Below are positions 2 through 25,398 of a stretch of DNA of 64,000 nt, one piece after another (the stretch's first letter is position 1; each line of letters begins with the position of its first letter). The DNA lies in assembly GCA_045546315.1 (NCBI GenBank), contig JAZQCN010000095.1, forward strand, positions 39,342 to 103,341, in the 5' to 3' direction. This DNA comes from Clostridia bacterium. GTDB taxonomy: Bacteria; Bacillota; Clostridia; UBA1381; UMGS1253. The position numbers were made by a program, and so were the translations under genes. The notes below the pieces were generated by a model, which saw only the letters and a program-made list of their open reading frames with translations, searched no databases and was not told where the DNA came from.

Positions 2-1234
2 TTGCGGCTGACCGTACATAAACATCGTTACCTCATAGCCACCACGGCATTTTACATCCTCGGTAATAAAGTAGCCCTCACTGCCGTTTGTGTTCGACAA
101 AGACAGCACGCGCTTATCTTCAAAGCAACCATCAATACGCATACCGATTTCAGAAAACAATTCATATGGGAAGGACGCAAATACCAGGTTGCCAAAGGCA
201 ACTACCGTCTGCTGTATCGGAATGCCTATTAGCTCCGGCTCGCTGTTTTCGTATGCAGCAATCGTATCCAATGCATATTGGCGCAGTGCGCCCTCAAAAT
301 TCACGGTATGCTCTTTGTATTTTTCGTAGAGCGCTTTCGCTTCCTCAAGTGGCAATCTTGCCTTGAGCGGCACTAAAATTTCCTTGCCTTCGCATATCAG
401 CTCTACCGCTTTGTAATCATAAATTTCTTTATAAATGCGCACGGCATCCTGCGCCGCAATATGGCCGAGCTCTTCAGCATAGCGGAAGCCCGTATACATA
501 CCGCCGGTGGTGTCTCCATTGGAAAGACGCGGGCCGACATCGCCCTCCGCTCCGTTAAAGAATGCGGTAATTGCACCGCTTTGATCCTCCAATTGGTCTG
601 TCATAAAGCCCGACCAGTCGCGGGTAATTTCCAAATTTCTGCCCGCCGCCGTACCGTGACAGCCGTAGTGAATCATATTTGCGACAACCGTGCCGGCTTC
701 ATTTTTAAAGGAAATAACGGTCATTTGCGGATTGAACGGTCCCCACGGATTCTGACCGAGCACTATGCGATTGTCCTCAGTCAGCTCGCGGCGATTTATA
801 CCCACATAGCTGTTACCGCTTGCCGTACCGACTGTTACCGCCTGCGTATTATTTATTGCCTGTTCGGCTGCCTTCAGGATGCCCGGAATCAAAATGCCGT
901 CGCAGTATTCCTTGTCAATACCGCCCCAACCGGCCTGCCCATTTGTATTTGGACCGGAATGGGTATGCGTTGCGCTGATGATACATTTCTGCTTCGGAAT
1001 ACCGAATTTTTCAGAAATCTGCGCAAGCACTGCCGCTGTCATTTCGGTGTTCAAAAGACAAACTGTTACCGAAACCATCAACGCCTGCGCTTTGCCCTGC
1101 TTAAAATAAAATGCGGTCGCCGTCAAATCATCCGCCACAGCGTTTGAAAACACATTCGGTGAATAGCCATAAAGCTGACAACCGATTTTCGGCGTAATGA
1201 TTTCGCGTGCAACGCCCATATACAGTTTTTCCAT
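2..1234 (-). CDS. Neutral/alkaline ceramidase N-terminal-domain-like metallo-hydrolase, 3' end cut by the window edge
   Basis: Absent from the ORF track because it runs off the edge. Manual translation from ATG at 1234 (GGAGG RBS): MEKLYMGVAREIITPKIG...SATHTHSGP...HYGCHGT...FFNGAEGDVGP...FPYELFSEIG...GGYE, motifs typical of this family. Confidence 0.75.
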   Translation of the reverse strand, partial: MEKLYMGVAREIITPKIGCQLYGYSPNVFSNAVADDLTATAFYFKQGKAQALMVSVTVCLLNTEMTAAVLAQISEKFGIPKQKCIISATHTHSGPNTNGQAGWGGIDKEYCDGILIPGILKAAEQAINNTQAVTVGTASGNSYVGINRRELTEDNRIVLGQNPWGPFNPQMTVISFKNEAGTVVANMIHYGCHGTAAGRNLEITRDWSGFMTDQLEDQSGAITAFFNGAEGDVGPRLSNGDTTGGMYTGFRYAEELGHIAAQDAVRIYKEIYDYKAVELICEGKEILVPLKARLPLEEAKALYEKYKEHTVNFEGALRQYALDTIAAYENSEPELIGIPIQQTVVAFGNLVFASFPYELFSEIGMRIDGCFEDKRVLSLSNTNGSEGYFITEDVKCRGGYEVTMFMYGQPQ

Positions 1235-1384
1235 AGCGATCCCTCCGCCTTGCTCTCTTTGATTTCATTATATAGCGCACCACGCATATTTTAAAGGGCT
1301 TTTCTTCTTTTATAATTCGCAAAAATTCTGATTTGCTTGACACACAAAACAAAATATAGTATTCTGTTTATAAGGATGTGAGAA

Positions 1385-2215
1385 TTGATGCTTCACCAAA
1401 AGTTATTAACCGGGCAAACGCCCTTCTACGCAACGGTCGGTACTGCAAGCGCCTTCCCACTGCATCGGCACCCGGACATTGAAATCAGCTATTGTCAAAA
1501 AGGCAGCTATAAAATTGTTATCAACAACCAAACGCATACCATCAGTGAAGGCGAATTTGCCCTAATTTTACCGCTGGACCCACATGAATATCCCGACTCA
1601 GAAAACACGGATGCACAGAGCCTCACCCTCATGCTCGGTCCGAATTTTTTAGGCGAATACTACAAGCCTTTTATTCACTCTGCGTTTGAAACAGTCTACT
1701 CCCTTAAGACAGACGCACCCGAAAGCACTACCTTGATGCACCTGTTTGAAGAAATCTTCCATTTGCGAGAACACCCTACGGAATTTTCAACATTGAAAAT
1801 TCACGGTAATCTTTATCAGATTTCTGCACTGATGCTCGAGCATTTGCCAATACAGCAAAGCAAAAAAACACATACAAAAAATCTGCAGGATCTTTCCAAA
1901 ATCGAAAAGGCGCTTGAAATCATTCATCAAGACTATGCCGAGCCGCTTTCTATCGATACAGTCAGTCATATATGCGGCTACAGCAAAAGCAATTTCTGCA
2001 CTACTTTTAAAAACATCACGGGCACAACCTTCCACAGCGTATTAAATCAGCACCGCATCGAGATTGCGTGCCTGCATTTACAGGGCAGCGACTTAACCGT
2101 GGAGGAAATTGCCGAAAAGGTCGGCTTTGCCGATGCAAAATCTTTCTGCCGCGTGTTCAAAAAGCAAATCGGCATTACCGCCGGAGAATACAAGAAAAAG
2201 CACAGAGCCATCTGA
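1385..2215 (+). CDS. AraC family transcriptional regulator with N-terminal cupin
   Basis: PLHRHPDIEI cupin; C-terminal double HTH (IAEKVGFADAKSFCRVFKK); divergent from the ceramidase-like gene. Confidence 0.9.
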   Translation: MMLHQKLLTGQTPFYATVGTASAFPLHRHPDIEISYCQKGSYKIVINNQTHTISEGEFALILPLDPHEYPDSENTDAQSLTLMLGPNFLGEYYKPFIHSAFETVYSLKTDAPESTTLMHLFEEIFHLREHPTEFSTLKIHGNLYQISALMLEHLPIQQSKKTHTKNLQDLSKIEKALEIIHQDYAEPLSIDTVSHICGYSKSNFCTTFKNITGTTFHSVLNQHRIEIACLHLQGSDLTVEEIAEKVGFADAKSFCRVFKKQIGITAGEYKKKHRAI

Positions 2216-2233
2216 GCCTCTGTGCTTTTTTTT
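2195..2233. terminator. Bidirectional intrinsic terminator
   Basis: AAAAGCACAGAG...CTCTGTGCTTTT between convergent genes. Confidence 0.7.
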
Positions 2234-2774
2234 ACCCTTCCATATGCCTTGCAAAAAACCCGGCTGCCGCCTGCGCAAGCTTTTCCTCCGCCTCGCTCGC
2301 AATCGCCTTGTCATCGGAAAAGAATACTACACTCCCTAAGCAGTCCCCCTCAGCGATAATCGGACAAACGACGCTTGCAAAGTGCTTGTCCGTGCCGTCA
2401 ATGAGCGGCACGAGCTTGTTTGTGCCGACTGCCTTGACATAGCTTGTTTTGCCGTCCATCAGTCGTTCCAACTCTGCGCTGACCGGCTTCTCCAGAATTT
2501 CGCGCTTAGAGGCACCGCTGACAGCAATAACGGTATCACGGTCGGTGATGCAGGCGGGCAGATTACTCGTTTTGGAAAGCGACTCTGCATACTGTGCGGC
2601 AAATTCGCCAAGCTCACCGATGGGCGAATATTTTTTAAAAATCACCTCGCCGTCACGGTTGGTGAAAATCTCAAGCGGGTCGCCCTCGCGGATGCGCATC
2701 GTGCGGCGGATTTCCTTCGGGATAACCACCCTGCCCAAATCATCTATTCTTCTTACAATTCCCGTTGCTTTCAT
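2232..2774 (-). CDS. spoVT: Stage V sporulation protein T (AbrB-like N-terminus + GAF)
   Basis: MKATGIVRRIDDLGRVVIPKEIRRTMRIREGDPLEIF...KKYSPIGEL signature. Confidence 0.96.
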   Translation of the reverse strand: MKATGIVRRIDDLGRVVIPKEIRRTMRIREGDPLEIFTNRDGEVIFKKYSPIGELGEFAAQYAESLSKTSNLPACITDRDTVIAVSGASKREILEKPVSAELERLMDGKTSYVKAVGTNKLVPLIDGTDKHFASVVCPIIAEGDCLGSVVFFSDDKAIASEAEEKLAQAAAGFFARHMEG

Positions 2775-2807
2775 AAAAAATGCTCCTTTTGGTTTTAGTT
2801 ACATCTC

Positions 2808-2836
2808 TATTGTGTGCAAGCAAGGAATTTTTATGT
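2808..2836 (-). promoter_or_regulatory. Putative sigmaG-type promoter of spoVT
   Basis: Minus strand ACATA-N17-CACAATA resembles GHATA...CATxHTA; spoVT is sigmaG-dependent in model spore formers. Confidence 0.45.
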
Positions 2837-2868
2837 AAGGGAAATGGTGGAAATGATTTTTTGCGGCT

Positions 2869-3345
2869 TTACGCCTCTTCAAACAACGGGTGCAAATAAT
2901 ATACCGTATCATTCGAAGAAGAGCTGCTGTCCGACGAATGACCGTAATGGTATTGCCAGAGGCCGTGCTTCTTTTTGGCTGTATGAATCGAAACATATTC
3001 ATAGCCTTTGTTGAAGGTCGGGTTTTTGGAATAAAAGGAACGGTCCACAAGCGCGATAATCCCGAAAAATGCGCCGTCCTTTACCAAAATTTCCTCGTCC
3101 TTGATTGGGCGGCAATATGTCTCGCTGTCAGCGCTGTTTTGATCATAGCCGTGGTCATCCTCATGGTAGGCATCCAAATCAATTCTCCAAAGATCTGCCT
3201 CTGCGCGTATTTTTTTGTATTCATCATCACTGTATTCTGTCTCGACAACATGAATGTCCGGCTCCTGGCTTGTCCACATAGGATATTCCGGGCTGCCGCA
3301 CACAAGCATGTCCGTTGTTTTTTCGGAAACGGTAAAAAGCTTCAT
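2869..3345 (-). CDS. Hypothetical acidic protein (158 aa)
   Basis: ATG at 3345 with GAGGGG RBS, directly after the asparaginase; no family recognised. Confidence 0.65.
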   Translation of the reverse strand: MKLFTVSEKTTDMLVCGSPEYPMWTSQEPDIHVVETEYSDDEYKKIRAEADLWRIDLDAYHEDDHGYDQNSADSETYCRPIKDEEILVKDGAFFGIIALVDRSFYSKNPTFNKGYEYVSIHTAKKKHGLWQYHYGHSSDSSSSSNDTVYYLHPLFEEA

Positions 3346-3361
3346 TGTATTTTCCCCTCTT

Positions 3362-4339
3362 CTATTCTTTAAATTCATTTGCAATTCTTTTTTGCATAAA
3401 TGCTTGAACATCCTCGCCCATACTCAGCGCTGCCCACGCCTTCATATACATGGAAACAAAGGTGCAATACGGCAGAGTGCCGATATGCAGCGCTTCAAAT
3501 AACTTTGTGCTTTCATAGCTGACACCGCCACGCACATTTGCCGCATAAACCGGGATGCCCTTTTCCGCTGCACTTTTGCAAAATTCTGCAAAGCACGCAT
3601 TTTCGGTATTGAGCGTTGCCGAATGGTAGGGCTTTACAAGCACAGCCTTCACCCTTGCAAGGTCATAGGCATAGCCGTCGCCCGGATGACTGTCAACAAC
3701 CAGTATCTCCGCACGCTCTGCATACTGCACTGCACCGAGCGCATTTATTTTTTTCGCCGTCGGCACGGCATTGACTTCAATTTTATCGGTATATATTGCA
3801 TAGGGCTGACCGTCGATACTGTGCAAATCCGCATCGCACTCGCGGTGCTGTAAAAGCCTTGTCGGAATATGGATGCCCGTAAAGCCTTCCCCATCGTTTT
3901 TATAGCTGACAAACACGCCGCCGCTTGCTTTGCTTTTGATAAATTCCACAGCAGCTTCAAAGTTTGAAAAGCCGTTCGTTCTTGCATCCTCCAACGGATA
4001 TGCCGCAGATACAAACACAATCGGGATTTTACAATCGCCGAAGGCATACTCCGCCGCTACGGCACTGTATTGCAGCGTATCCGTGCCGTGTGTTACGATG
4101 ATGCCGTCGTAATCTTTTGCAAGCTGCCGCGTAAGCTCGGCTTGCAAAAGGTTTAACGCCCCTGCCGAAAGGTTTTCACTTAATATACTGTACGGCGAAG
4201 CCGTAACAAATTCAACTTCCTTTTGGTATTGCTCAAAATGCTTCAGCAAAATATAATTTGCCGCACTGTCGACCGAAACCCAGTCTTTGTTTGCGCGACT
4301 ACCAATCGTTCCGCCCGTAAACAGCACAAGAATTTTCAC
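3362..4339 (-). CDS. L-asparaginase (type I-like)
   Basis: FTGGTIGS and VTHGTDT catalytic Thr motifs; GTG start with AAGGGG RBS. Confidence 0.9.
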   Translation of the reverse strand: MKILVLFTGGTIGSRANKDWVSVDSAANYILLKHFEQYQKEVEFVTASPYSILSENLSAGALNLLQAELTRQLAKDYDGIIVTHGTDTLQYSAVAAEYAFGDCKIPIVFVSAAYPLEDARTNGFSNFEAAVEFIKSKASGGVFVSYKNDGEGFTGIHIPTRLLQHRECDADLHSIDGQPYAIYTDKIEVNAVPTAKKINALGAVQYAERAEILVVDSHPGDGYAYDLARVKAVLVKPYHSATLNTENACFAEFCKSAAEKGIPVYAANVRGGVSYESTKLFEALHIGTLPYCTFVSMYMKAWAALSMGEDVQAFMQKRIANEFKE

Positions 4340-8878: not shown

Positions 8879-9658
8879 CTACCGGGGATGCTTTTTATAT
8901 TCCATCGGCGAAACACCGACAGTTTTCCGAAACATTTTTGAAAAATTGAACACATCGCCATAGCCCGATAAAACGGCTGCTTCAGACACACTGTGCCCGG
9001 AAGCCAAAAATTCCTTTGCCTTTTCCATACGCACATGCACAATGTATTCCTTCACAGACTCGCCGTAGCGCGCTTTAAAAACTCTCGAGAGATAGCGCCG
9101 GTTCAAACCGAACCGCTGCGCCATATCCTCCACAGTTAACGCTTCCATATAGTTTAGCTTAATATAGCGGTGTACCTGCCCCGTCACATCCAGCGGCTGC
9201 TGCGCATTAAAAAACAAATGATGCATAATTTCAAAAATCGCCGCCGCACAGGAGTGCGCGCTGACCGCATTTATTTTTACCGCCTCGGCAATTTTTAAAA
9301 AGGTATCTTCCGGATAATCCACAACCGGCGCAATGGAAGAAAATTTTTCTGCAAGGCTGCCGGCAAACGAAATCCATACATATACCCACGGATCCTTCGG
9401 GTCTGCTGCATAGGTTGTAGTCTCCTCCGGACAGATTGTAAAAAATTGCCCCTCCGCTACCGGATAGGTCTCGCCCGTTTCGTGCTTTGTAAAGGTGCCC
9501 TTGCCGCTGATACAGTAATGCAAAAGATAGTATTGGCGTATACGCGGACCGAATGTATTGGTCGGCAGGCATTTCTCCATACCAACAAACAGCGGAATTA
9601 TATCATGATAAACACCGCGCTCCGCTTCTATCGGCACACTCCAAAAACGCTTATGCAT
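8879..9658 (-). CDS. AraC family transcriptional regulator
   Basis: FGPRIRQYYLLHYCISGKG binding domain; C-terminal HTH; GGAGG RBS. Confidence 0.9.
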   Translation of the reverse strand: MHKRFWSVPIEAERGVYHDIIPLFVGMEKCLPTNTFGPRIRQYYLLHYCISGKGTFTKHETGETYPVAEGQFFTICPEETTTYAADPKDPWVYVWISFAGSLAEKFSSIAPVVDYPEDTFLKIAEAVKINAVSAHSCAAAIFEIMHHLFFNAQQPLDVTGQVHRYIKLNYMEALTVEDMAQRFGLNRRYLSRVFKARYGESVKEYIVHVRMEKAKEFLASGHSVSEAAVLSGYGDVFNFSKMFRKTVGVSPMEYKKHPR

Positions 9659-9789
9659 AATTACACCTCCCATATCAAGTTACATTATAACATACACTTT
9701 CTCCAAAAGTCCATTGTTTTTCTGTAAAAATCCAAAAAACAGAGAAAAAATGACAAATTTTCATCTGTGCCCATTCAGCGTTTATTTTC

Positions 9790-9818
9790 TTGACAGCACT
9801 TTATAAAAAAGTTATAAT
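9790..9818 (+). promoter_or_regulatory. Consensus sigmaA promoter for the STAND operon
   Basis: TTGACA (9790-9795), 17-bp spacer, TATAAT (9813-9818). Confidence 0.85.
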
Positions 9819-9872
9819 AAAATCAGTAGATTTATATGCTTTTTTAAGCACGCAGATATCGGAGGAGATAAG

Positions 9873-12800
9873 ATGAGCGATTTTAATTTTGCAAAAGCCC
9901 TCGAAGGCTTTAACGGTGACGCTGCCCGCAACATCCTGTTTATAGGCGACAGCTTTGACTTTGAAAAGGACAAGCCGCTTCTGGATTTGAAATGGAATAC
10001 GGTTTTCTGCTTTTTGCAAGATGAAAGCAAGATTATGCAAGTGCAATTATATATGCAAAACGATTCGCGTCAGGTTAAACGCCTCGATAATCTGGACGAA
10101 GCAGAAAAAATAGCACACCAATTTGACTATCGCAACTTAAACTTCATCTCTCTTTGGGCGCAAAACAATCCGGATTTCATAAACGCAGTAAATGCGATTC
10201 GCTCCATTAAAAACTTTTGCGCAAAGGCCATCTGTCATTTCGGCTGCGCTTATTTTGTAGGTTATACGGAAAATTGCTGGTTTGAAAAGGCACAAATGTT
10301 TCCGTTGCTCACCGCTGTATACCCCGAGCTGCAAAGGGAAAACTGCATCATCATCGACCGTTGCAGTGCAGACAGCTTTGCAAATTTCAAAGCCACCCTC
10401 AGCAATGTTCACGAGTGCCGCTGCTTTTCCTTTATTGAGGAATCCTTAGCGGAAATGTGGTGCTCCGATGCCACGGCAAGCCAGGCAAGTCAGGATTGGG
10501 ACGACGACTATTTCGAGCCGGAGGAGACCCTCTCAAAGCATGTGCTGTTTATCAACAATAAAAGCATAGCCCTGGAAAAAAAGGAAATTCGGGACATCGC
10601 TTCCTTTGCAACGCTTCTTGACTATGAGGAGCTGACCCCTGCACCGACACCGAAGTATTTGCACCCTTCGTCCTTCGCTGCCTTTTTGAAAAACAACTCC
10701 AATTATCCGAAGTGGTACAGCTATGCCGAAAAATATGCGCTCGTTCGCAGCTACCAGAAGGACCTGACCGAAATTGTCACGAATTCTTTGCAGAATCCGT
10801 CCAATTTCGACTACCGACCGATTCTTTTGCACGGTCAGTCCGGTGCAGGTAAAAGCGTTGCGCTCGGGCAGCTTGCCTATGATATTTTCCACGAAAAGAA
10901 ATTCCCTGTAATCTATATCACAAATCCACAGGTTGCCTTCAGCCCGAAAGCACGCATCGGCACAGATGCACGGCGCCGTTTTGATGCACTGTCTCACTTA
11001 ATTAAAACACTGCAAAATGTCCACGGGGCAAAATCGACGCTGCTGATTTGGGACTGCTCCGGCTTTGAATACGAGCGCACCTGCTACCTCAATCTCTATT
11101 CGGCACTGCGCGAGGCCGGCTTAAATGTTACCTTAGTCGGCACCAACTACCAGCTTGCCGGAAACAATGCGCACCTCAAGGATTTTTATACCATCGAGGC
11201 ACCGATTCAGTTGAATCAGGACGAGCGCGCACAGTTCCGCTCGATTCTCAAAAACAAGGCCCGTTTGGACACCGAGGATATTGATGCTCTGTTTACACAC
11301 AGCACCGAAGACAGCTTCCTTGTAATTCTCTACAACATTTTCTGGGAGCTGCGCAATGATATCTCCCGCGGCATTTATGCGGAATTCCGCGAAACTGTCA
11401 AGGACATTTTACATGCGCCGACTGTCACAAACGAAGGTCTTTTCGGCGATATGTTCGTGCGTAATTTTGAAAAATTCAATGATTTTCTTGCCTCAATGAA
11501 TACCGAACAAAACGAGCAGGAAAAGCTTAAGGATTTCACAATTACCGCCGCAATGCTGACCTATTTTAATATGCCTATGTCCATCGATATGATTCACGGT
11601 CTGCTTGCTTCGGATATGGATATGCTTTTAAAGGTATTAAACGCGCCGATTTTCTCCAAGAGCGAGCAGGATGGCAATTACTACTACAAAATCCGCTCCC
11701 GCCTGGAGGCAGAGCTCCTTTTGCGTGCGCACAATCTGAACCCGAAAAGCGACAACAAAGAAAAGTATGTTGTCTGCCTTTGCCGCCTCCTTTACTTAAT
11801 CGAGCGGGAAAACTTCGGTTCTTATGCAGCAGATGAAGCCATTGAAAAAGTAACCCGCATTATCGCCGCTGTCGGTCCGAACAGCAAGCCTTCCGATGTA
11901 AGATGGAAAAACGAGGTGTTCTATGAATATGCGCCGTGTCTGATCAATGCCTTAGCTGCTGCCGGAAAAGCAACCGAGGACCCGCGCATTATAAACCAGG
12001 AGCTGACACTGACGCGTGAGCTGAAGGGCAAAGAAGCTTTATCGTGTTCCTATGAGGATTTCTACAGAATCTTAAGCGAAGCGCGTGACTATACTCCGGA
12101 TGCTGCAACAGACGATTTCTTCAGCACTTATACAAAAGAAGACTATAAACCGATTCTTTCCGATGTAAAAATTGAAGATGCAGACCGCTATTTGCGCAAT
12201 CCGGCAACCGACGATTACCATTTGAGCAGCTACTATGCACAAATTAAGGTCGAGCTGGCAAACTGTCTGCTTGCATTTGAAAAAGATCAGGAAAGAACAG
12301 ATGCGGACCGTCTGCACAGAGCGGAGCGCTTGTGTGAAGATGCGTTGCGTACACCGCATAAAACCAATGCACCGGCAACCTTAATCTGGTTGAAGGTACA
12401 CCTGCTCAGAGCAGAGCTTTCGAAGGATGAGCAAGAGAGCATCTTCCCCGAAACCATCGACAGAATTTCTTTCTTTACGCAAAAATATCCGGAGCTTGTG
12501 CACGGCGATAACAATTCCAGCTTTATCGGCGCTTGTGCAGACTTTTTCGAAGCGTTCAAGGAAAATGTCGATGTGGATTCGCTGGCAGAAAAGCTCCATA
12601 CCACGCCGACTGCCTCCATTTTGTATCTTTGCGCCTTCAGAGAGTGCATAGATGCCGGCATCATTTCCGTTGCGCCGCCGGATGCAGCCGAGCAGAAAAA
12701 GATCAACAAGAAAACCCCGCCGCCGATTGAATGGAAAGCACCGGAGAATCCGCAGCTTGCAGTCGATATCTATAACCGATTCTTCAACGAAAAATATTTC

Positions 12801-13364
12801 TCCGTCTTTAAAAATGATGTGAGATGCCTGAATCTGCAAATGCGCCTGTTCTGGGTTATGCACAACAAAGCACCGCTCAACATTTCCGGCGAAAAGCAAA
12901 AAACCACCTTCACGCAGGAGCAATGGAGCACGCTTATCAGCATCTGCGGCCTTGCAAAGATGCTCGATCCGTCGGCAAATACCTTCTATCTGCGCTTTGT
13001 GCTGGCATTGGCATACGCACAGTGCGATAATTTTGCCGACTATAATGCGGAAATTTCCAGAATCAAGGACGAAAGCACCTTCGACAGCTTTAACCTTCTG
13101 CCGTTCCCGAGATACATTCTTTGCCATCCGGACGGCACGCCGAAAAAATGCAAGGGTGTCGTAACGAAAGAGTGTAGTGGCTCTGACACCAGAGGCCGTA
13201 TGGATATCTATATGGAAGAAACAAATCTGTTCCTCCCGGATATATTCTACAACAAAAATAACCTTACATATACCCCTGCCAAGGGCGACACCGTAGAAGA
13301 CATTTGCCTCGGCTTCAGCCACAAGGGCTTATCTGCGCTGCACGATAAGGAGGATGCAAAATGA
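9873..13364 (+). CDS. Large STAND-type P-loop NTPase, SAMD9-like architecture (SIR2-like / NTPase / helical repeats / OB fold); putative antiviral sensor
   Basis: Walker A GQSGAGKS (aa 321-328), Walker B TLLIWD (aa 389-394), N-terminal LLDLKWNTVFCF, long helical region, beta-rich C-terminus ending ICLGFSHKGLSA; GGAGGAG RBS. Confidence 0.75.
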   Translation: MSDFNFAKALEGFNGDAARNILFIGDSFDFEKDKPLLDLKWNTVFCFLQDESKIMQVQLYMQNDSRQVKRLDNLDEAEKIAHQFDYRNLNFISLWAQNNPDFINAVNAIRSIKNFCAKAICHFGCAYFVGYTENCWFEKAQMFPLLTAVYPELQRENCIIIDRCSADSFANFKATLSNVHECRCFSFIEESLAEMWCSDATASQASQDWDDDYFEPEETLSKHVLFINNKSIALEKKEIRDIASFATLLDYEELTPAPTPKYLHPSSFAAFLKNNSNYPKWYSYAEKYALVRSYQKDLTEIVTNSLQNPSNFDYRPILLHGQSGAGKSVALGQLAYDIFHEKKFPVIYITNPQVAFSPKARIGTDARRRFDALSHLIKTLQNVHGAKSTLLIWDCSGFEYERTCYLNLYSALREAGLNVTLVGTNYQLAGNNAHLKDFYTIEAPIQLNQDERAQFRSILKNKARLDTEDIDALFTHSTEDSFLVILYNIFWELRNDISRGIYAEFRETVKDILHAPTVTNEGLFGDMFVRNFEKFNDFLASMNTEQNEQEKLKDFTITAAMLTYFNMPMSIDMIHGLLASDMDMLLKVLNAPIFSKSEQDGNYYYKIRSRLEAELLLRAHNLNPKSDNKEKYVVCLCRLLYLIERENFGSYAADEAIEKVTRIIAAVGPNSKPSDVRWKNEVFYEYAPCLINALAAAGKATEDPRIINQELTLTRELKGKEALSCSYEDFYRILSEARDYTPDAATDDFFSTYTKEDYKPILSDVKIEDADRYLRNPATDDYHLSSYYAQIKVELANCLLAFEKDQERTDADRLHRAERLCEDALRTPHKTNAPATLIWLKVHLLRAELSKDEQESIFPETIDRISFFTQKYPELVHGDNNSSFIGACADFFEAFKENVDVDSLAEKLHTTPTASILYLCAFRECIDAGIISVAPPDAAEQKKINKKTPPPIEWKAPENPQLAVDIYNRFFNEKYFSVFKNDVRCLNLQMRLFWVMHNKAPLNISGEKQKTTFTQEQWSTLISICGLAKMLDPSANTFYLRFVLALAYAQCDNFADYNAEISRIKDESTFDSFNLLPFPRYILCHPDGTPKKCKGVVTKECSGSDTRGRMDIYMEETNLFLPDIFYNKNNLTYTPAKGDTVEDICLGFSHKGLSALHDKEDAK

Positions 13365-14170
13365 TCACCTCCGCTGACTTTATTCCGGTTGTAAACAGCA
13401 TCAACGAAGCCTTCGCGGACTTCGAAGAGTATGCACGCAGCTTCATCTTTCTGGAATGGAATCCGCTGTTTAACGAAAGCGACACGCTGGAAAGCAAATT
13501 CTGGCGCGAATGCATCAACATACACATTCTCTTTCGCGAATGTATGCCGGGAGCATTATCCGGCGAGGACTATTCGCTCAAAAAAGCATTTTTCACTGCG
13601 CTTGGTTATCAGGATGCGGAGATACACGAGCTGAACAGCTTCTGTTTTCTTTTGCGTGAGTTACGCCTATACCGTTGCCATTTGCTGGACGGTAATATTC
13701 AAAGAACCGTAGCCAGACGCCAAAATATAGAGAAAAACTTCAGAGATATGGCGCTGACAGATGAGTGGCAGTTCCGTATGGACGAAGAGCAGTGGGAACT
13801 TACCTTCCGTCAGCTGTATGACACAGCCGCGTCTTTGCTTTACCAAATGGCAAAAAAAATCAAAGCCGTCCGTGACGAGCAGCGCGCGCAGGTGTTTGCA
13901 GCTTGGAAAACACTGTATGTAAGATGGTATGCGTCTTCGGAGATGTGCCGAACTTATTTACACAGCGGCTTTTGCGAGTATTACATTATGGAGGACAGAA
14001 TTTCCGATGTACCTTCGCAGGAAAAGCCGGCCCGAAGAGCTGACAAGGCAATGAGAAACGATGCTTTGAAGGAAAGAGCCAAAGCTGAATACGCAAATAT
14101 GACTGCGTATAAAACCTTTGAGCCTGCCCAGCTCAGCTTTGAAATTGTAAAGGCGGTTATGCGTAATTAA
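13361..14170 (+). CDS. Hypothetical helical protein with HEPN-like RxxxxH motif, coupled to the STAND gene
   Basis: ATGA overlap with the upstream stop, AGGAGG RBS; R102-L-Y-R-C-H107. Confidence 0.6.
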   Translation: MITSADFIPVVNSINEAFADFEEYARSFIFLEWNPLFNESDTLESKFWRECINIHILFRECMPGALSGEDYSLKKAFFTALGYQDAEIHELNSFCFLLRELRLYRCHLLDGNIQRTVARRQNIEKNFRDMALTDEWQFRMDEEQWELTFRQLYDTAASLLYQMAKKIKAVRDEQRAQVFAAWKTLYVRWYASSEMCRTYLHSGFCEYYIMEDRISDVPSQEKPARRADKAMRNDALKERAKAEYANMTAYKTFEPAQLSFEIVKAVMRN

Positions 14171-14176
14171 GAATAG

Positions 14177-14213
14177 CAAAAAAACAGGCGATGTTTTTTC
14201 ATCGCCTGTTTTT
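14177..14213. terminator. Bidirectional intrinsic terminator closing the STAND operon
   Basis: AAAAACAGGCGATG...CATCGCCTGTTTTT. Confidence 0.8.
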
Positions 14214-14901
14214 ATATCCAAAAGCCCAACAGCCACAGCGCCACCAAATGCACCGGGAAATAAATATAGAAAAAGTATTTCATCTTCAGTCTGCCGCGCG
14301 CACCGCTGTAGAGCATAAGCAGCGGAAGCGCCAGAAACGAAAAGGCTTGTATCGTGCCGTAGGTCACCGTTAAAAGCGCGAGCCCGACGCCGCAAAGTGC
14401 AAGCTGCTGCTTTTTGGTTTTCCCCAAATACACGCCGACCGGCAAAAGCACTCCCCAGAAGCCGTAGTCAATTGCAAAGTCTGTTCCGGAAAGCAATCGC
14501 GGTAACACCATCGTTAAAAACGCTGTTGCCGCAAGTAAAAAAGCAAACGGCAGCCACGAAAAAGCGCTGCGCTTTTTTATTGCATAATCCGCCATATAAA
14601 TCAGCCCGATGGATAGCGCAAAGGTGACCAAAATGCACTGATAAAGTGAATTTAGCGCGAAATAATAAAGAAGCTGCACCACAGCCGCGAGGGTGACAAT
14701 GCCCAAAAGGTAGCGCGTACGGTTTTTCGTATAGCGGCAGCCCTCCGCAATCATATAGGCAAACAGTGGCATTGCCACTCTGCCGATGATGCGCAAAAGC
14801 AAACACTGCGGAAACAACATCAAGCCGATATGGTCTGCCGTCATACAAATTGCCGCGATGATTTTCAATTGGTTTCCGCTCAGCCTTTGCAAACCGCTCA
14901 T
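14212..14901 (-). CDS. TraX family membrane protein (putative acyltransferase)
   Basis: LKIIAAICMTADHIG...IGRVAMPLFAYMIAEG...KYFFYIYFPVHL. Confidence 0.85.
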   Translation of the reverse strand: MSGLQRLSGNQLKIIAAICMTADHIGLMLFPQCLLLRIIGRVAMPLFAYMIAEGCRYTKNRTRYLLGIVTLAAVVQLLYYFALNSLYQCILVTFALSIGLIYMADYAIKKRSAFSWLPFAFLLAATAFLTMVLPRLLSGTDFAIDYGFWGVLLPVGVYLGKTKKQQLALCGVGLALLTVTYGTIQAFSFLALPLLMLYSGARGRLKMKYFFYIYFPVHLVALWLLGFWI

Positions 14902-15425
14902 CCCTTTACATAATGCACCAATTCCGCAATGGCGGCTCTGTCCGTAAAGTCGCCGCTCTCCTCACATAAGCGAATCAGCATTTTCTCCATTTCGTTCGGA
15001 TTTTCCTTCGCCGACATAATCTTTTTCAGCGTTTTTATCGCGGCCCTGTGCGGCAGCGACAGCTCATCTAAAATCATTTTACCCAAAAAGTTAAACACTT
15101 TAATCTTTTCCCGCATATGCGGCTTAAAGTTTTTCTCCATGACCATAACATCATAGTATTCGCGCACCTCCGGCGGTGTCAGCCCCGTTGTGTACACGAC
15201 AAGCTTTTTTCCCTCCAGCTTGTCAAAATTTTTCGTAATCAGATTCACGCCGGCTATCATTTCCGCATACAGACCGCCACCGTATACAATCGTGTCGTAG
15301 TCTTGCAAATCCGCTGGCTTTACCGCCTTTGCATCCACCACGCTGCAGCCGAGCTCTTCGGCAATCCACTCGGCATAGGTCTTTGTCGAGCCGTATTTTG
15401 ATTTGTAAATTACAATTGCGTTCAT
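14898..15425 (-). CDS. Flavodoxin-domain protein (HemG/Flavodoxin_5-like)
   Basis: IYKSKYGSTKTYAEWIA FMN loop; YGGGLYA. Confidence 0.85.
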   Translation of the reverse strand: MNAIVIYKSKYGSTKTYAEWIAEELGCSVVDAKAVKPADLQDYDTIVYGGGLYAEMIAGVNLITKNFDKLEGKKLVVYTTGLTPPEVREYYDVMVMEKNFKPHMREKIKVFNFLGKMILDELSLPHRAAIKTLKKIMSAKENPNEMEKMLIRLCEESGDFTDRAAIAELVHYVKG

Positions 15426-15646
15426 ATACTCACCTCTGTTTTATGCTTATGCTGTCTTTTTAAAATTTTGACCACGCGCGGTCGATTATAGCGCTGAATT
15501 ACGATAAACTGCCCATCAAAGAGCATTGCAAGCACTGCCGTCAGCGCAAAAATCCAAAGCTGACCCCAAAGCAAGCCGAACAAAAGGGTGCTTAGCGAAA
15601 TCACACAATACATAAATATTGCAGGGCCGCTCGGTTTTGTTTTCAT
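15422..15646 (-). CDS. Small two-TM membrane protein ending in a CrtO-like QRYNRPR motif
   Basis: Hydrophobic 74-aa ORF, AGGGG RBS, overlaps the next start. Confidence 0.6.
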   Translation of the reverse strand: MKTKPSGPAIFMYCVISLSTLLFGLLWGQLWIFALTAVLAMLFDGQFIVIQRYNRPRVVKILKRQHKHKTEVSI

Positions 15647-23899: not shown

Positions 23900-24048
23900 A
23901 ATAATACTCCTCAACTAAAAGATATTACCATTATATTTTAAAGCAACGCCCATGTCAAGGAACATAGTACAAAAAAGAAGGAAATGCAACTAAAAATACA
24001 GGCTTGAATTTCACGCTAAAATGCAGTACAATATAGACAATTTCTTTT

Positions 24049-25369: not shown

Positions 25370-25398
25370 TTGACAATTTCCCTACACCAATGTATAAT
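25370..25398 (+). promoter_or_regulatory. Consensus sigmaA promoter of the rpmH operon
   Basis: TTGACA-N17-TATAAT. Confidence 0.85.

Follow-up and report, generated by a model that had tools for sequence, protein, structure and literature searches.

A 64,000-nucleotide stretch of a Clostridia bacterium genome (contig JAZQCN010000095.1, positions 39,342 to 103,341; hereafter the window) raises the question of how a STAND NTPase built like human SAMD9 could act when it carries no nuclease of its own. The NTPase is the product (P0001) of the first of two overlapping genes, gene A. The second, gene B, encodes a small all-helical protein (P0002) that a preliminary description of the locus suggested might be a HEPN-like effector supplied in trans. 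Comparison of structures, family profiles, and related loci leaves little doubt that the two genes form a conserved module, a SAMD9-like NTPase with a partner encoded directly behind it, and it points to a partner that carries the features of a HEPN active site, while the SIR2-like domain of the NTPase appears to have lost those of an enzyme.

In a Foldseek search of the PDB with an AlphaFold2 model of P0001 (mean predicted local distance difference test score [pLDDT], 72.8; predicted TM-score, 0.54), the six top rows were all human SAMD9 cryo-EM chains (best, 9zjw_A, E 2.8e-19), followed by the SIR2-STAND protein EfAvs5 (9jap_A, 7.6e-10) and the AVAST5 filament (9nc9, 2.7e-8), with the TPR-STAND protein 6mfv and Avs3 (8dgc, 3.4e-7) among further matches. 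VIA-align placed 764 residues on SAMD9 (Z 15.6), model residues 1 to 1160 running along chain residues 390 to 1588, which is the span that opens with the SIR2-like domain and reaches the C terminus, and it matched EfAvs5 over model residues 8 to 908 (Z 15.0). Residues of about 214 to 723 resemble NB-ARC/Apaf-1-like proteins (Dark, Z 12.9; WRR4A, 12.6; CED-4, about 12.4; Apaf-1, 11.4). These matches support the domain order first proposed, SIR2-like, NTPase, helical repeats, and C-terminal beta domain; the alignment reaches SAMD9 chain residue 1588, and the last domain is placed at the OB fold by position only. Global TM-scores of these alignments are low (0.27) and root mean square deviations (rmsd) large, as is expected where domain orientations differ. 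What the models support is thus a STAND NTPase whose domains, SIR2-like to C-terminal beta, are ordered as in SAMD9, and no claim is made that the two share one quaternary shape. The helical repeat array is presumed from the model to be the sensor. The SIR2-like segment starts at about residue 20, which leaves no space for a fused nuclease, as the preliminary description had argued, and Pfam returned no AlbA match.

Profile libraries say less about gene A than its fold does. Its match to Pfam nSTAND_NTPase5 (PF25199) over residues 278 to 358 scores 29.9 bits, below the cut-off of 34; Pfam otherwise gave only generic P-loop noise, and PADLOC and NCBIfam nothing meaningful. Precomputed annotation attaches the PF25199 label to seven of the eight proteins from a word-indexed search, and under that name Pfam already catalogues the NTPase module. 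G321, Q322, G326, K327, and D394 do not vary in any of three alignments, comprising 8, 26, and 16 gene A sequences; K327, the Walker A lysine, had been singled out beforehand together with R102 and H107 of gene B, and all three residues are present and unchanging among relatives.

The word-indexed search had returned eight relatives each of the gene A and gene B proteins. An exhaustive profile search with gene A returned 919 clusters at 50% identity (E <= 1e-3), including 537 at E <= 1e-30, and among the 150 listed of these 919 nearly all are 1,030 to 1,214 residues long and match end to end. The arrangement is therefore no singleton but the uniform architecture of a large family. Sixty loci were available for comparison: the window (L001), one GTDB genome (L002, the sole locus recovered by a contig scan with narrow patterns), one locus from a phylum scan (L003), and 57 metagenome contigs, among which L045, L046, and L047 are identical and the pairs L024/L027 and L051/L053 near-identical. 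Four IMG/VR contigs and genomes of the window's genus were added to these.

Pairing of the two genes proved strict. When a partner profile, which converged after two rounds of iteration, was run against 1,969 open reading frames (ORFs), it matched only those that come straight after the NTPase gene and share its strand. A partner is present in 44 of the 60 loci. Thirteen of the 16 loci that lack one end 0 to 227 bp past the NTPase ORF, and the other three (L029, L050, and L055) have broken NTPase frames. All misses being short or broken, every locus able to show a partner does so (44/44), as do the four IMG/VR loci and two divergent same-genus copies (4/4 and 2/2, with 4-bp overlaps), and the conservation of the gene pair, put forward earlier as a check, is borne out. 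Spacing of the two genes was estimated at -4 in 15 of the 44 loci, and 43 fall within the range of -29 to +16. No third gene recurs with them; the largest cross-locus cluster among 144 neighbor ORFs has three members.

The two divergent copies come from genomes of the same genus (G404:C182 and G405:C3, loci L067 to L070) and encode an NTPase frame of 1,260 to 1,288 residues and a partner of 326 to 329. Because these NTPases match the family profile at both ends only, the alignment suggests that the middle and sensor part of gene A diversifies rapidly within a single genus.

Whether gene A could act alone depends largely on its N-terminal domain. Residues 1 to 200 of the model align with the SIR2 domain of DSR2 (Z 11.0; rmsd, 4.0; 178 residues aligned). 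The Asn of the TTNYD motif is a SIR2 catalytic residue, and the catalytic His is named in the titles of PDB entries (H146N and H171A). Alignment of the gene A family profile with the SIR2 NADase KomC pairs GAGxS with LGQnf, TTNYD with TssqD, and His146 with the F of yLfG, so that L48 of P0001 falls at the Asn and W95 at the His; the alignment is weak (E 0.023 to 0.062), and this counts against any reading built on these positions. Among 153 relatives of at least 1,000 residues, the Asn column holds Ala in 57, Ser in 41, Arg in 10, Leu in 8, and Asn in 7, and the His column holds Phe in 99, Tyr in 22, Asn in 12, and Trp in 5, with no His among the commonest residues. Since both columns are lost across the relatives, the SIR2-like domain is, on this alignment, a pseudo-enzyme throughout the gene A family. 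With neither an AlbA nuclease nor the SIR2 catalytic positions, the term effector-less that had been applied to gene A remains apt even when measured against Avs5, where SIR2 serves as the effector. The SIR2-like domain of SAMD9L is non-enzymatic and acts as a scaffold, according to a preprint (bioRxiv 10.64898/2026.02.01.703102), and that of gene A is probably an assembly or docking scaffold.

These columns also count against another alternative, that gene A is a plain Avs5 whose SIR2 domain degrades NAD, with gene B beside it only incidentally as an accessory. The best structural matches do include EfAvs5 and the AVAST5 filament, but the lack of His among the common residues of the His column, an Asn column with Asn in so few relatives, and the presence of gene B at every informative locus are all difficult to reconcile with it. 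PADLOC Avs models were likewise unmatched, beyond P-loop noise, by gene A and 15 relatives at E <= 0.01; in PADLOC-DB v2.0.0 these 16 NTPases hit only mad8, TRIP13, DinG, and REase_I (E 3e-4 to 7e-3). We consider this the least credible of the explanations weighed here.

If gene A has no effector, attention shifts to gene B. Its model is all-helical (pLDDT, 81.7), with helices at residues 4 to 19, 43 to 61, 68 to 81 (an insert), 85 to 106, and 113 to 129. Across 44 distinct partners of at least 230 residues, only F47, R102, and H107 are invariant. E60 is kept in 42 (with Asp in the other two) and E44 in 41, both within helix 43 to 61, and W145 in 42. In the model, R102 to C106 close helix 85 to 106 and H107 is the first residue of the loop toward helix 113 to 129. 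The motif reads LRTxxQHNL in the main branch of partners and RLYRCH in the sub-branch of P0002. As a survey of HEPN proteins (PMC3710099) describes them, helix 3 has an Rx4-6H motif where it ends, helix 2 carries a conserved acidic residue, and inserts occur between these two helices. Gene B has the corresponding pattern: its Rx4H closes the third core helix, its acidic residues are in helix 2, and its insert separates helices 2 and 3. HEPN RNases, including the anticodon nucleases PrrC and RloC, share this arrangement with gene B. Its ESM-Atlas neighbors that carry names are all RnlA/LsoA HEPN clusters (0.76 to 0.80), a similarity at the level of a lead. A second candidate motif in P0002, R49x5H55, was rejected, as conservation of H55 stops at the sub-branch and only 37 of 44 partners have R49.

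Several results pull the other way. Foldseek with the P0002 model found nothing at E <= 0.001 in PDB and BFVD. An exhaustive VIA comparison gave generic long-helix bundles (best Z 6.8), and the seven HEPN entries among its 50 rows (5yep_B, 5.8; 5hy3_A, 5.2; 7aex_A, 5.0; 8xdj_A, 4.8; 1wwp_B, 4.7; 1jog_A, 4.6; 8oz7_A, 4.6), which include SO_3166, LsoA, RnlA, an AMPylated HEPN toxin, 1wwp, HI0074, and the AbiA C-terminal region, tie with unrelated proteins. Partner profiles run against PDB sequences returned no HEPN. P0002 and its sub-branch have Leu directly behind R102, and the main branch has Thr there; a polar residue (N, D, or H) is typical of HEPN proteins at this place. Pfam, PADLOC, and NCBIfam gave no match to P0002, PADLOC gave nothing credible on 34 partners, and hhalign of the partner profile with E. 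coli RnlA, represented by a single sequence only, gave an uninformative probability of 0.2%. A search for HEPN_RnaseLS (PF18869) was uninformative, being empty in 301 genomes but silent also in 14 control genomes. Of the proposal that the coupled ORF is HEPN-like, then, the invariant Rx4H, its placement where helix 3 ends, and the helix 2 acidic residues stood, but no significant fold or profile match accompanied them. Our confidence that gene B is HEPN-like is moderate because of the weak fold matches and the Leu after R102 in P0002, and we lean somewhat toward the partner being a HEPN-type RNase effector.

A competing possibility is that gene B encodes a regulator, adaptor, inhibitor, or co-sensor and that the output comes from gene A itself (for example, if it depletes nucleotides, performs non-canonical SIR2-like chemistry, or binds nucleic acid through the OB-position domain) or from an unlinked host factor. 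The lack of a significant HEPN fold match is compatible with this, as is the finding of no fused A-B or longer partner form among 8,000 scored candidates, which is weak evidence. STAND systems can use non-effector partners, since Avs7 is reported to recruit the host component EF-Tu (PMC13581612). However, the sole invariant polar residues of gene B are an Arg and a His arranged as Rx4H at the HEPN position, a pattern that speaks for a catalytic site and not for a binding surface, and gene A, with its SIR2 catalytic positions gone, has no recognizable enzymatic domain besides the ATPase. We judge a non-effector role for gene B unlikely.

An effector encoded in trans would need to meet its sensor, and binding had a high prior already because the genes are translationally coupled and strictly co-occur. 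Co-folding of gene A residues 1 to 720 with gene B, run with custom alignments for which the calibration counts hold only roughly, gave a score of 0.47 (runs of 0.41, 0.47, and 0.48), compared with 0.00 for the best of three controls; the runs share at least 57% of contacts, and the pLDDT of the partner is at least 78. In the calibration, 58 of 80 solved complexes reached the mark, as did 2 of 110 mismatched pairs; among those that reached it, scores of 0.60 or less belonged to only 7 of the 80 complexes and to both mismatches. The score sits in this weak zone, and that belongs with the unfavorable evidence. The co-folding check suggested at the outset thus came out above all three controls, but only at a level graded as weak support, and it modestly raises the chance of a physical complex between gene B and the N-terminal two-thirds of gene A.

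A further hint concerns the substrate. Pfam PF13735 (tRNA_NucTran2_2) matches 17 of 34 partners at E <= 1, with 10 checked matches scoring 13.5 to 23.7 bits against a cut-off of 27. These matches span about 30 to 110 residues and fall at a C-terminal LPITGxD...PGPxVGxLL element, which is seen within the last 60 or so residues of the partners from L006, L007, L011, L022, L024, L041, L045, and L049. Profiles of main-branch partner C termini also match the tails of CCA-adding enzymes, human and others, weakly (E 0.13 to 0.39). By sequence, the element hints at tRNA binding by main-branch partners only; it is absent from the P0002 sub-branch, and the hint therefore says nothing of the substrate of P0002.

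Taken as a whole, the evidence inclines us, by a narrow preference, to a model of a self-contained two-gene STAND-type immune module. Gene A would be sensor and switch in one, made up of an Apaf-1/NB-ARC-like ATPase whose Walker A and B motifs are intact, a repeat array, and an OB-position domain, and it would hold the gene B protein inactive. We infer that binding of a phage-derived ligand by the repeat or OB part would drive nucleotide-dependent oligomerization of gene A, whose dead SIR2-like domain and NTPase platform would carry the gene B protein. HEPN enzymes as a rule require that two Rx4-6H motifs meet, which is why the model includes a step in which oligomerized gene A would bring gene B protomers together as an active RNase. 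Cleavage of cellular RNA, phage RNA, or both would then stop translation and abort the infection, with tRNA a possible substrate in the main branch. A more specific version, a split SAMD9 in which the STAND sensor, its SIR2-like domain dead, would both dock a separate HEPN RNase and license it, with tRNA as the target at least in the main branch, is a tentative extension that we would not yet expect to be correct.

The same components could be arranged as a toxin-antitoxin-like pair, with gene B a constitutive RNase toxin and gene A its ATPase antitoxin or chaperone, and without specific sensing of phages. Tight gene coupling and a HEPN-like candidate toxin fit such a pair, and there is precedent for HEPN toxins countered by protein antitoxins in RnlA/RnlB, which is annotated in E. 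coli K-12. In contrast, gene A has the full pattern-recognition architecture of a STAND sensor, about 1,150 residues long and uniform in the 150 listed of the 919 clusters, which is far beyond what neutralization needs, and we hold this arrangement to be improbable.

The immune part of the model draws on distribution and context as well as on fold. The module occurs in 2 of 401 genomes of a phylum-wide sample and in 4 of 41 relatives, all of the window's genus (three of its five other species); 35 genomes from other genera had no copy. At L002 it adjoins the same flavodoxin, RNA methyltransferase, and beta-lactamase-family genes as in the window, and proteins of this flank are 85% (386/456) and 70% (277/395) identical between the two loci, compared with 52% for gene A and about 40% for gene B. 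On the upstream side the contents differ, with AraC and ABC exporters in the window and CarD-like, MFS, SpoVT, and HflX-type genes in L002, and the TraX gene that lies between module and flavodoxin gene in the window is absent from the equivalent L002 junction (12313-12894). Because the module diverges far faster than its flanks and the junction contents vary, these comparisons indicate that it behaves as a fast-evolving accessory cassette at a variable junction beside conserved genes.

Several neighborhoods contain genes of conflict systems. Type I HsdM is near the module in L021, L028, and L030, with HsdS-like ORFs in L028 and L030. Directly downstream in L024 (9991-14342) and L027 (3871-8222) are an MmeI-type IIG enzyme (956 residues) and a beta-CASP/RMMBL metallo-beta-lactamase nuclease (485 residues). 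L021, with a caspase-PD40/beta-propeller-PKD protein upstream (774-3539) and HsdM and a DUF4357 protein downstream (10054-13067), looks like a conflict-system island. A C5-methylase fragment is near the module in L003, and integrase or transposase domains occur in a few neighbor ORFs. Restriction-modification genes adjoin the module at several of about 50 loci, an anecdotal count. The module is also on four IMG/VR contigs, a statement of database membership alone.

It remains to ask whether the pair is immune at all, or instead a module of stress or signal transduction that acts on host RNA, through regulated RNA turnover, for example, and is patchy by chance. For that alternative, and against a defensive role, speak the housekeeping-type neighbors in the window (ABC exporters, AraC, TraX, flavodoxin, and RNA methyltransferase) and many at other loci (CPSase, DNA ligase, and histidine kinase), together with a tblastn search of P0001 against 72,556 plasmids and 50,697 phage records that gave no match at 1e-10; P0047 gave none against the plasmids at the same threshold. 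Signal transduction was also what Mekhedov et al. (2017) proposed for bacterial SAMD9-family members. Yet the closest structural relatives of gene A, SAMD9, Avs5, and Avs3, are antiviral proteins. The very patchy distribution, divergence much faster than that of the flanks, restriction-modification genes beside several independent loci, occurrence on IMG/VR contigs, and the lack of any conserved third gene or pathway context also run counter to a housekeeping function. A non-immune role is in our view no likelier than a non-effector gene B, and the module is probably antiviral.

As a separate observation on these neighborhoods, 3 of the 144 neighbor ORFs match Pfam Hen1_L of Pnkp/Hen1 RNA repair (best E 5.4e-106), and an RNA-repair system beside a candidate RNase is of interest.

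Several known systems share parts of the module. SAMD9 and SAMD9L (9zjr, 9zjs, and 9zjw) share with gene A the sequence of SIR2-like domain, STAND NTPase, helical or TPR region, and C-terminal OB-position domain, and an RNase acting on translation is the output expected of them, as proposed here. They differ in having SAM and AlbA_2 tRNase domains, neither of which gene A possesses, the candidate nuclease here being a separate HEPN-like protein. Gene A also has a Walker A with the canonical Lys (K327), and identity over the structural alignment is about 12 to 13%. Avs5 (AVAST type 5; 9jap and 9nc9) likewise begins with a SIR2 fold followed directly by a STAND NTPase and a helical sensor, but it is a single gene with SIR2 as its effector, whereas here the Asn and His are lost, Avs hidden Markov models are unmatched, and the partner gene is obligatory. 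Avs9, also a bacterial SAMD9-like STAND protein, owes its toxicity to an N-terminal nuclease and is defined by a fused AlbA_2 (Legrand et al., 2025; PMC12680541), whereas here no AlbA_2 occurs and every informative locus has a second gene. The module is thus a member of neither group, lying outside Avs9 because it lacks AlbA_2 and outside Avs5 because the SIR2 catalytic residues and the profile matches are missing, and it would join the logic of SAMD9 and Avs9, in which a STAND switch controls a nuclease that halts translation, to an Avs5-like scaffold.

In multigene STAND conflict systems, the components are reportedly linked by shared effector-associated adaptor domains; in contrast, no domain shared by genes A and B was detected here (hhalign probability, 1.5%). 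The systems in question (Kaur et al., 2020/2021; PMC8195603) place NTPase and effector in neighboring genes, as here. A HEPN domain fused to a STAND ATPase with TPR and S1, a known fusion of HEPN and STAND ATPase with an OB-type domain, is listed in Anantharaman et al. (2013; PMC3710099), whereas the HEPN-like protein here is encoded by a separate, coupled gene, and Leu follows the Arg in P0002.

The pair was not found described in PADLOC v2 or in the papers within reach, in keeping with the original impression that the arrangement was not a described one, and we found no paper that names PF25199, nSTAND_NTPase5, or nSTAND5; the supplements of PMC13581612 (589 STAND clades) and PMC12680541 (238 SAMD9-like hits) may list the family. 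Not found described there is a populous family in which a SAMD9-like NTPase with a dead SIR2-like domain is joined to an obligatory, separately encoded HEPN-like partner. SAMD9 and SAMD9L count among human antiviral and disease genes, and their regulation is only now becoming clear from structures; the bacterial relatives described so far (Avs5, Avs6, and Avs9) have their effector in cis. If the immune model is right, the module would be an uncharacterized candidate defense system undetected by PADLOC v2, would offer a genetically separable sensor-effector pair for studying the activation of SAMD9-type nucleases and a docking or assembly role of SIR2-like domains, and would widen the theme of translation arrest via RNA cleavage in STAND immunity. 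Should the split-SAMD9 version with a tRNA target also hold, translation shutdown through tRNA cleavage, controlled by a SAMD9-type switch, would have arisen at least twice with unrelated nucleases, AlbA in cis and HEPN in trans, and the function of the enigmatic SIR2-like domain of SAMD9 could be approached in a tractable bacterial system.

Table 1. Coordinates of the two-gene module, its domains and signals, and its immediate neighbors in the window
Feature	Position	Strand	Basis
AraC-family regulator, upstream neighbor, divergent	8879-9673	-	Library scan
Sigma-70-type promoter, TTGACA-17-TATAAT	9790-9818	+	12/12 consensus positions
Shine-Dalgarno of gene A, GGAGGAG	9861-9867	+	Sequence
Gene A ORF (P0001), 1163 aa, SAMD9/Avs5-like STAND NTPase	9873-13364	+	ORF, structure matches, family profile
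SIR2-like Rossmann domain, aa ~1-200, predicted catalytically dead	9873-10472	+	VIA, KomC profile alignment
P-loop NTPase core, gene A aa ~280-500	10710-11372	+	nSTAND_NTPase5 (sub-threshold), invariant motifs, VIA
Walker A GQSGAGKS, gene A aa 321-328 (Walker B, D394)	10833-10856	+	Sequence
Helical repeat (TPR-like) array, gene A aa ~760-1070	12150-13082	+	Model secondary structure, SAMD9 co-linearity
C-terminal beta domain, gene A aa ~1078-1160	13104-13352	+	Model strands E1080-1157, SAMD9 OB-fold position
Shine-Dalgarno of gene B, AAGGAGG, within gene A 3' end	13347-13353	+	Sequence
Gene B ORF (P0002), 269 aa, all-helical, HEPN-like partner	13361-14170	+	ORF, model
Rx4H motif of gene B, R102-L-Y-R-C-H107	13664-13681	+	Conservation, model
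Hairpin terminator common to convergent gene B and TraX	14180-14213	both	14-bp stem, T runs on both strands
TraX, downstream neighbor, convergent	14212-14901	-	Library scan

The anatomy of the transcription unit is as first described, from promoter through the two ORFs to the terminator (Table 1). The ATG of gene B overlaps the TGA of gene A as ATGA, an arrangement by which gene B is, to judge from the sequence, translationally coupled to gene A. The terminator hairpin folds at -21.4 kcal/mol (z -6.74), with none of 200 shuffles equally good. The unit is set against both of its neighbors, an AraC-family gene and TraX, which are on the minus strand and unrelated to it, and its GC content is not distinct from the surroundings in the window. 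Two ABC exporters lie farther upstream, beyond AraC, and TraX is followed by the flavodoxin gene, a small CrtO-like ORF, the RNA methyltransferase gene (TRAM/U5 type), and the gene for the beta-lactamase-family protein. The CrtO-like ORF (15422-15646, minus strand; 74 residues) matches only positions 70 to 123 of the 123 in the CrtO acyltransferase family profile and may be a gene remnant or a short paralogue. Exact TTGACA-17-TATAAT promoters occur three times on the two strands of the window, the further two being at 23930-23958 (minus strand) and 25370-25398 (plus strand), a total far above chance (mean of 0.03 and maximum of 1 in 100 shuffles).

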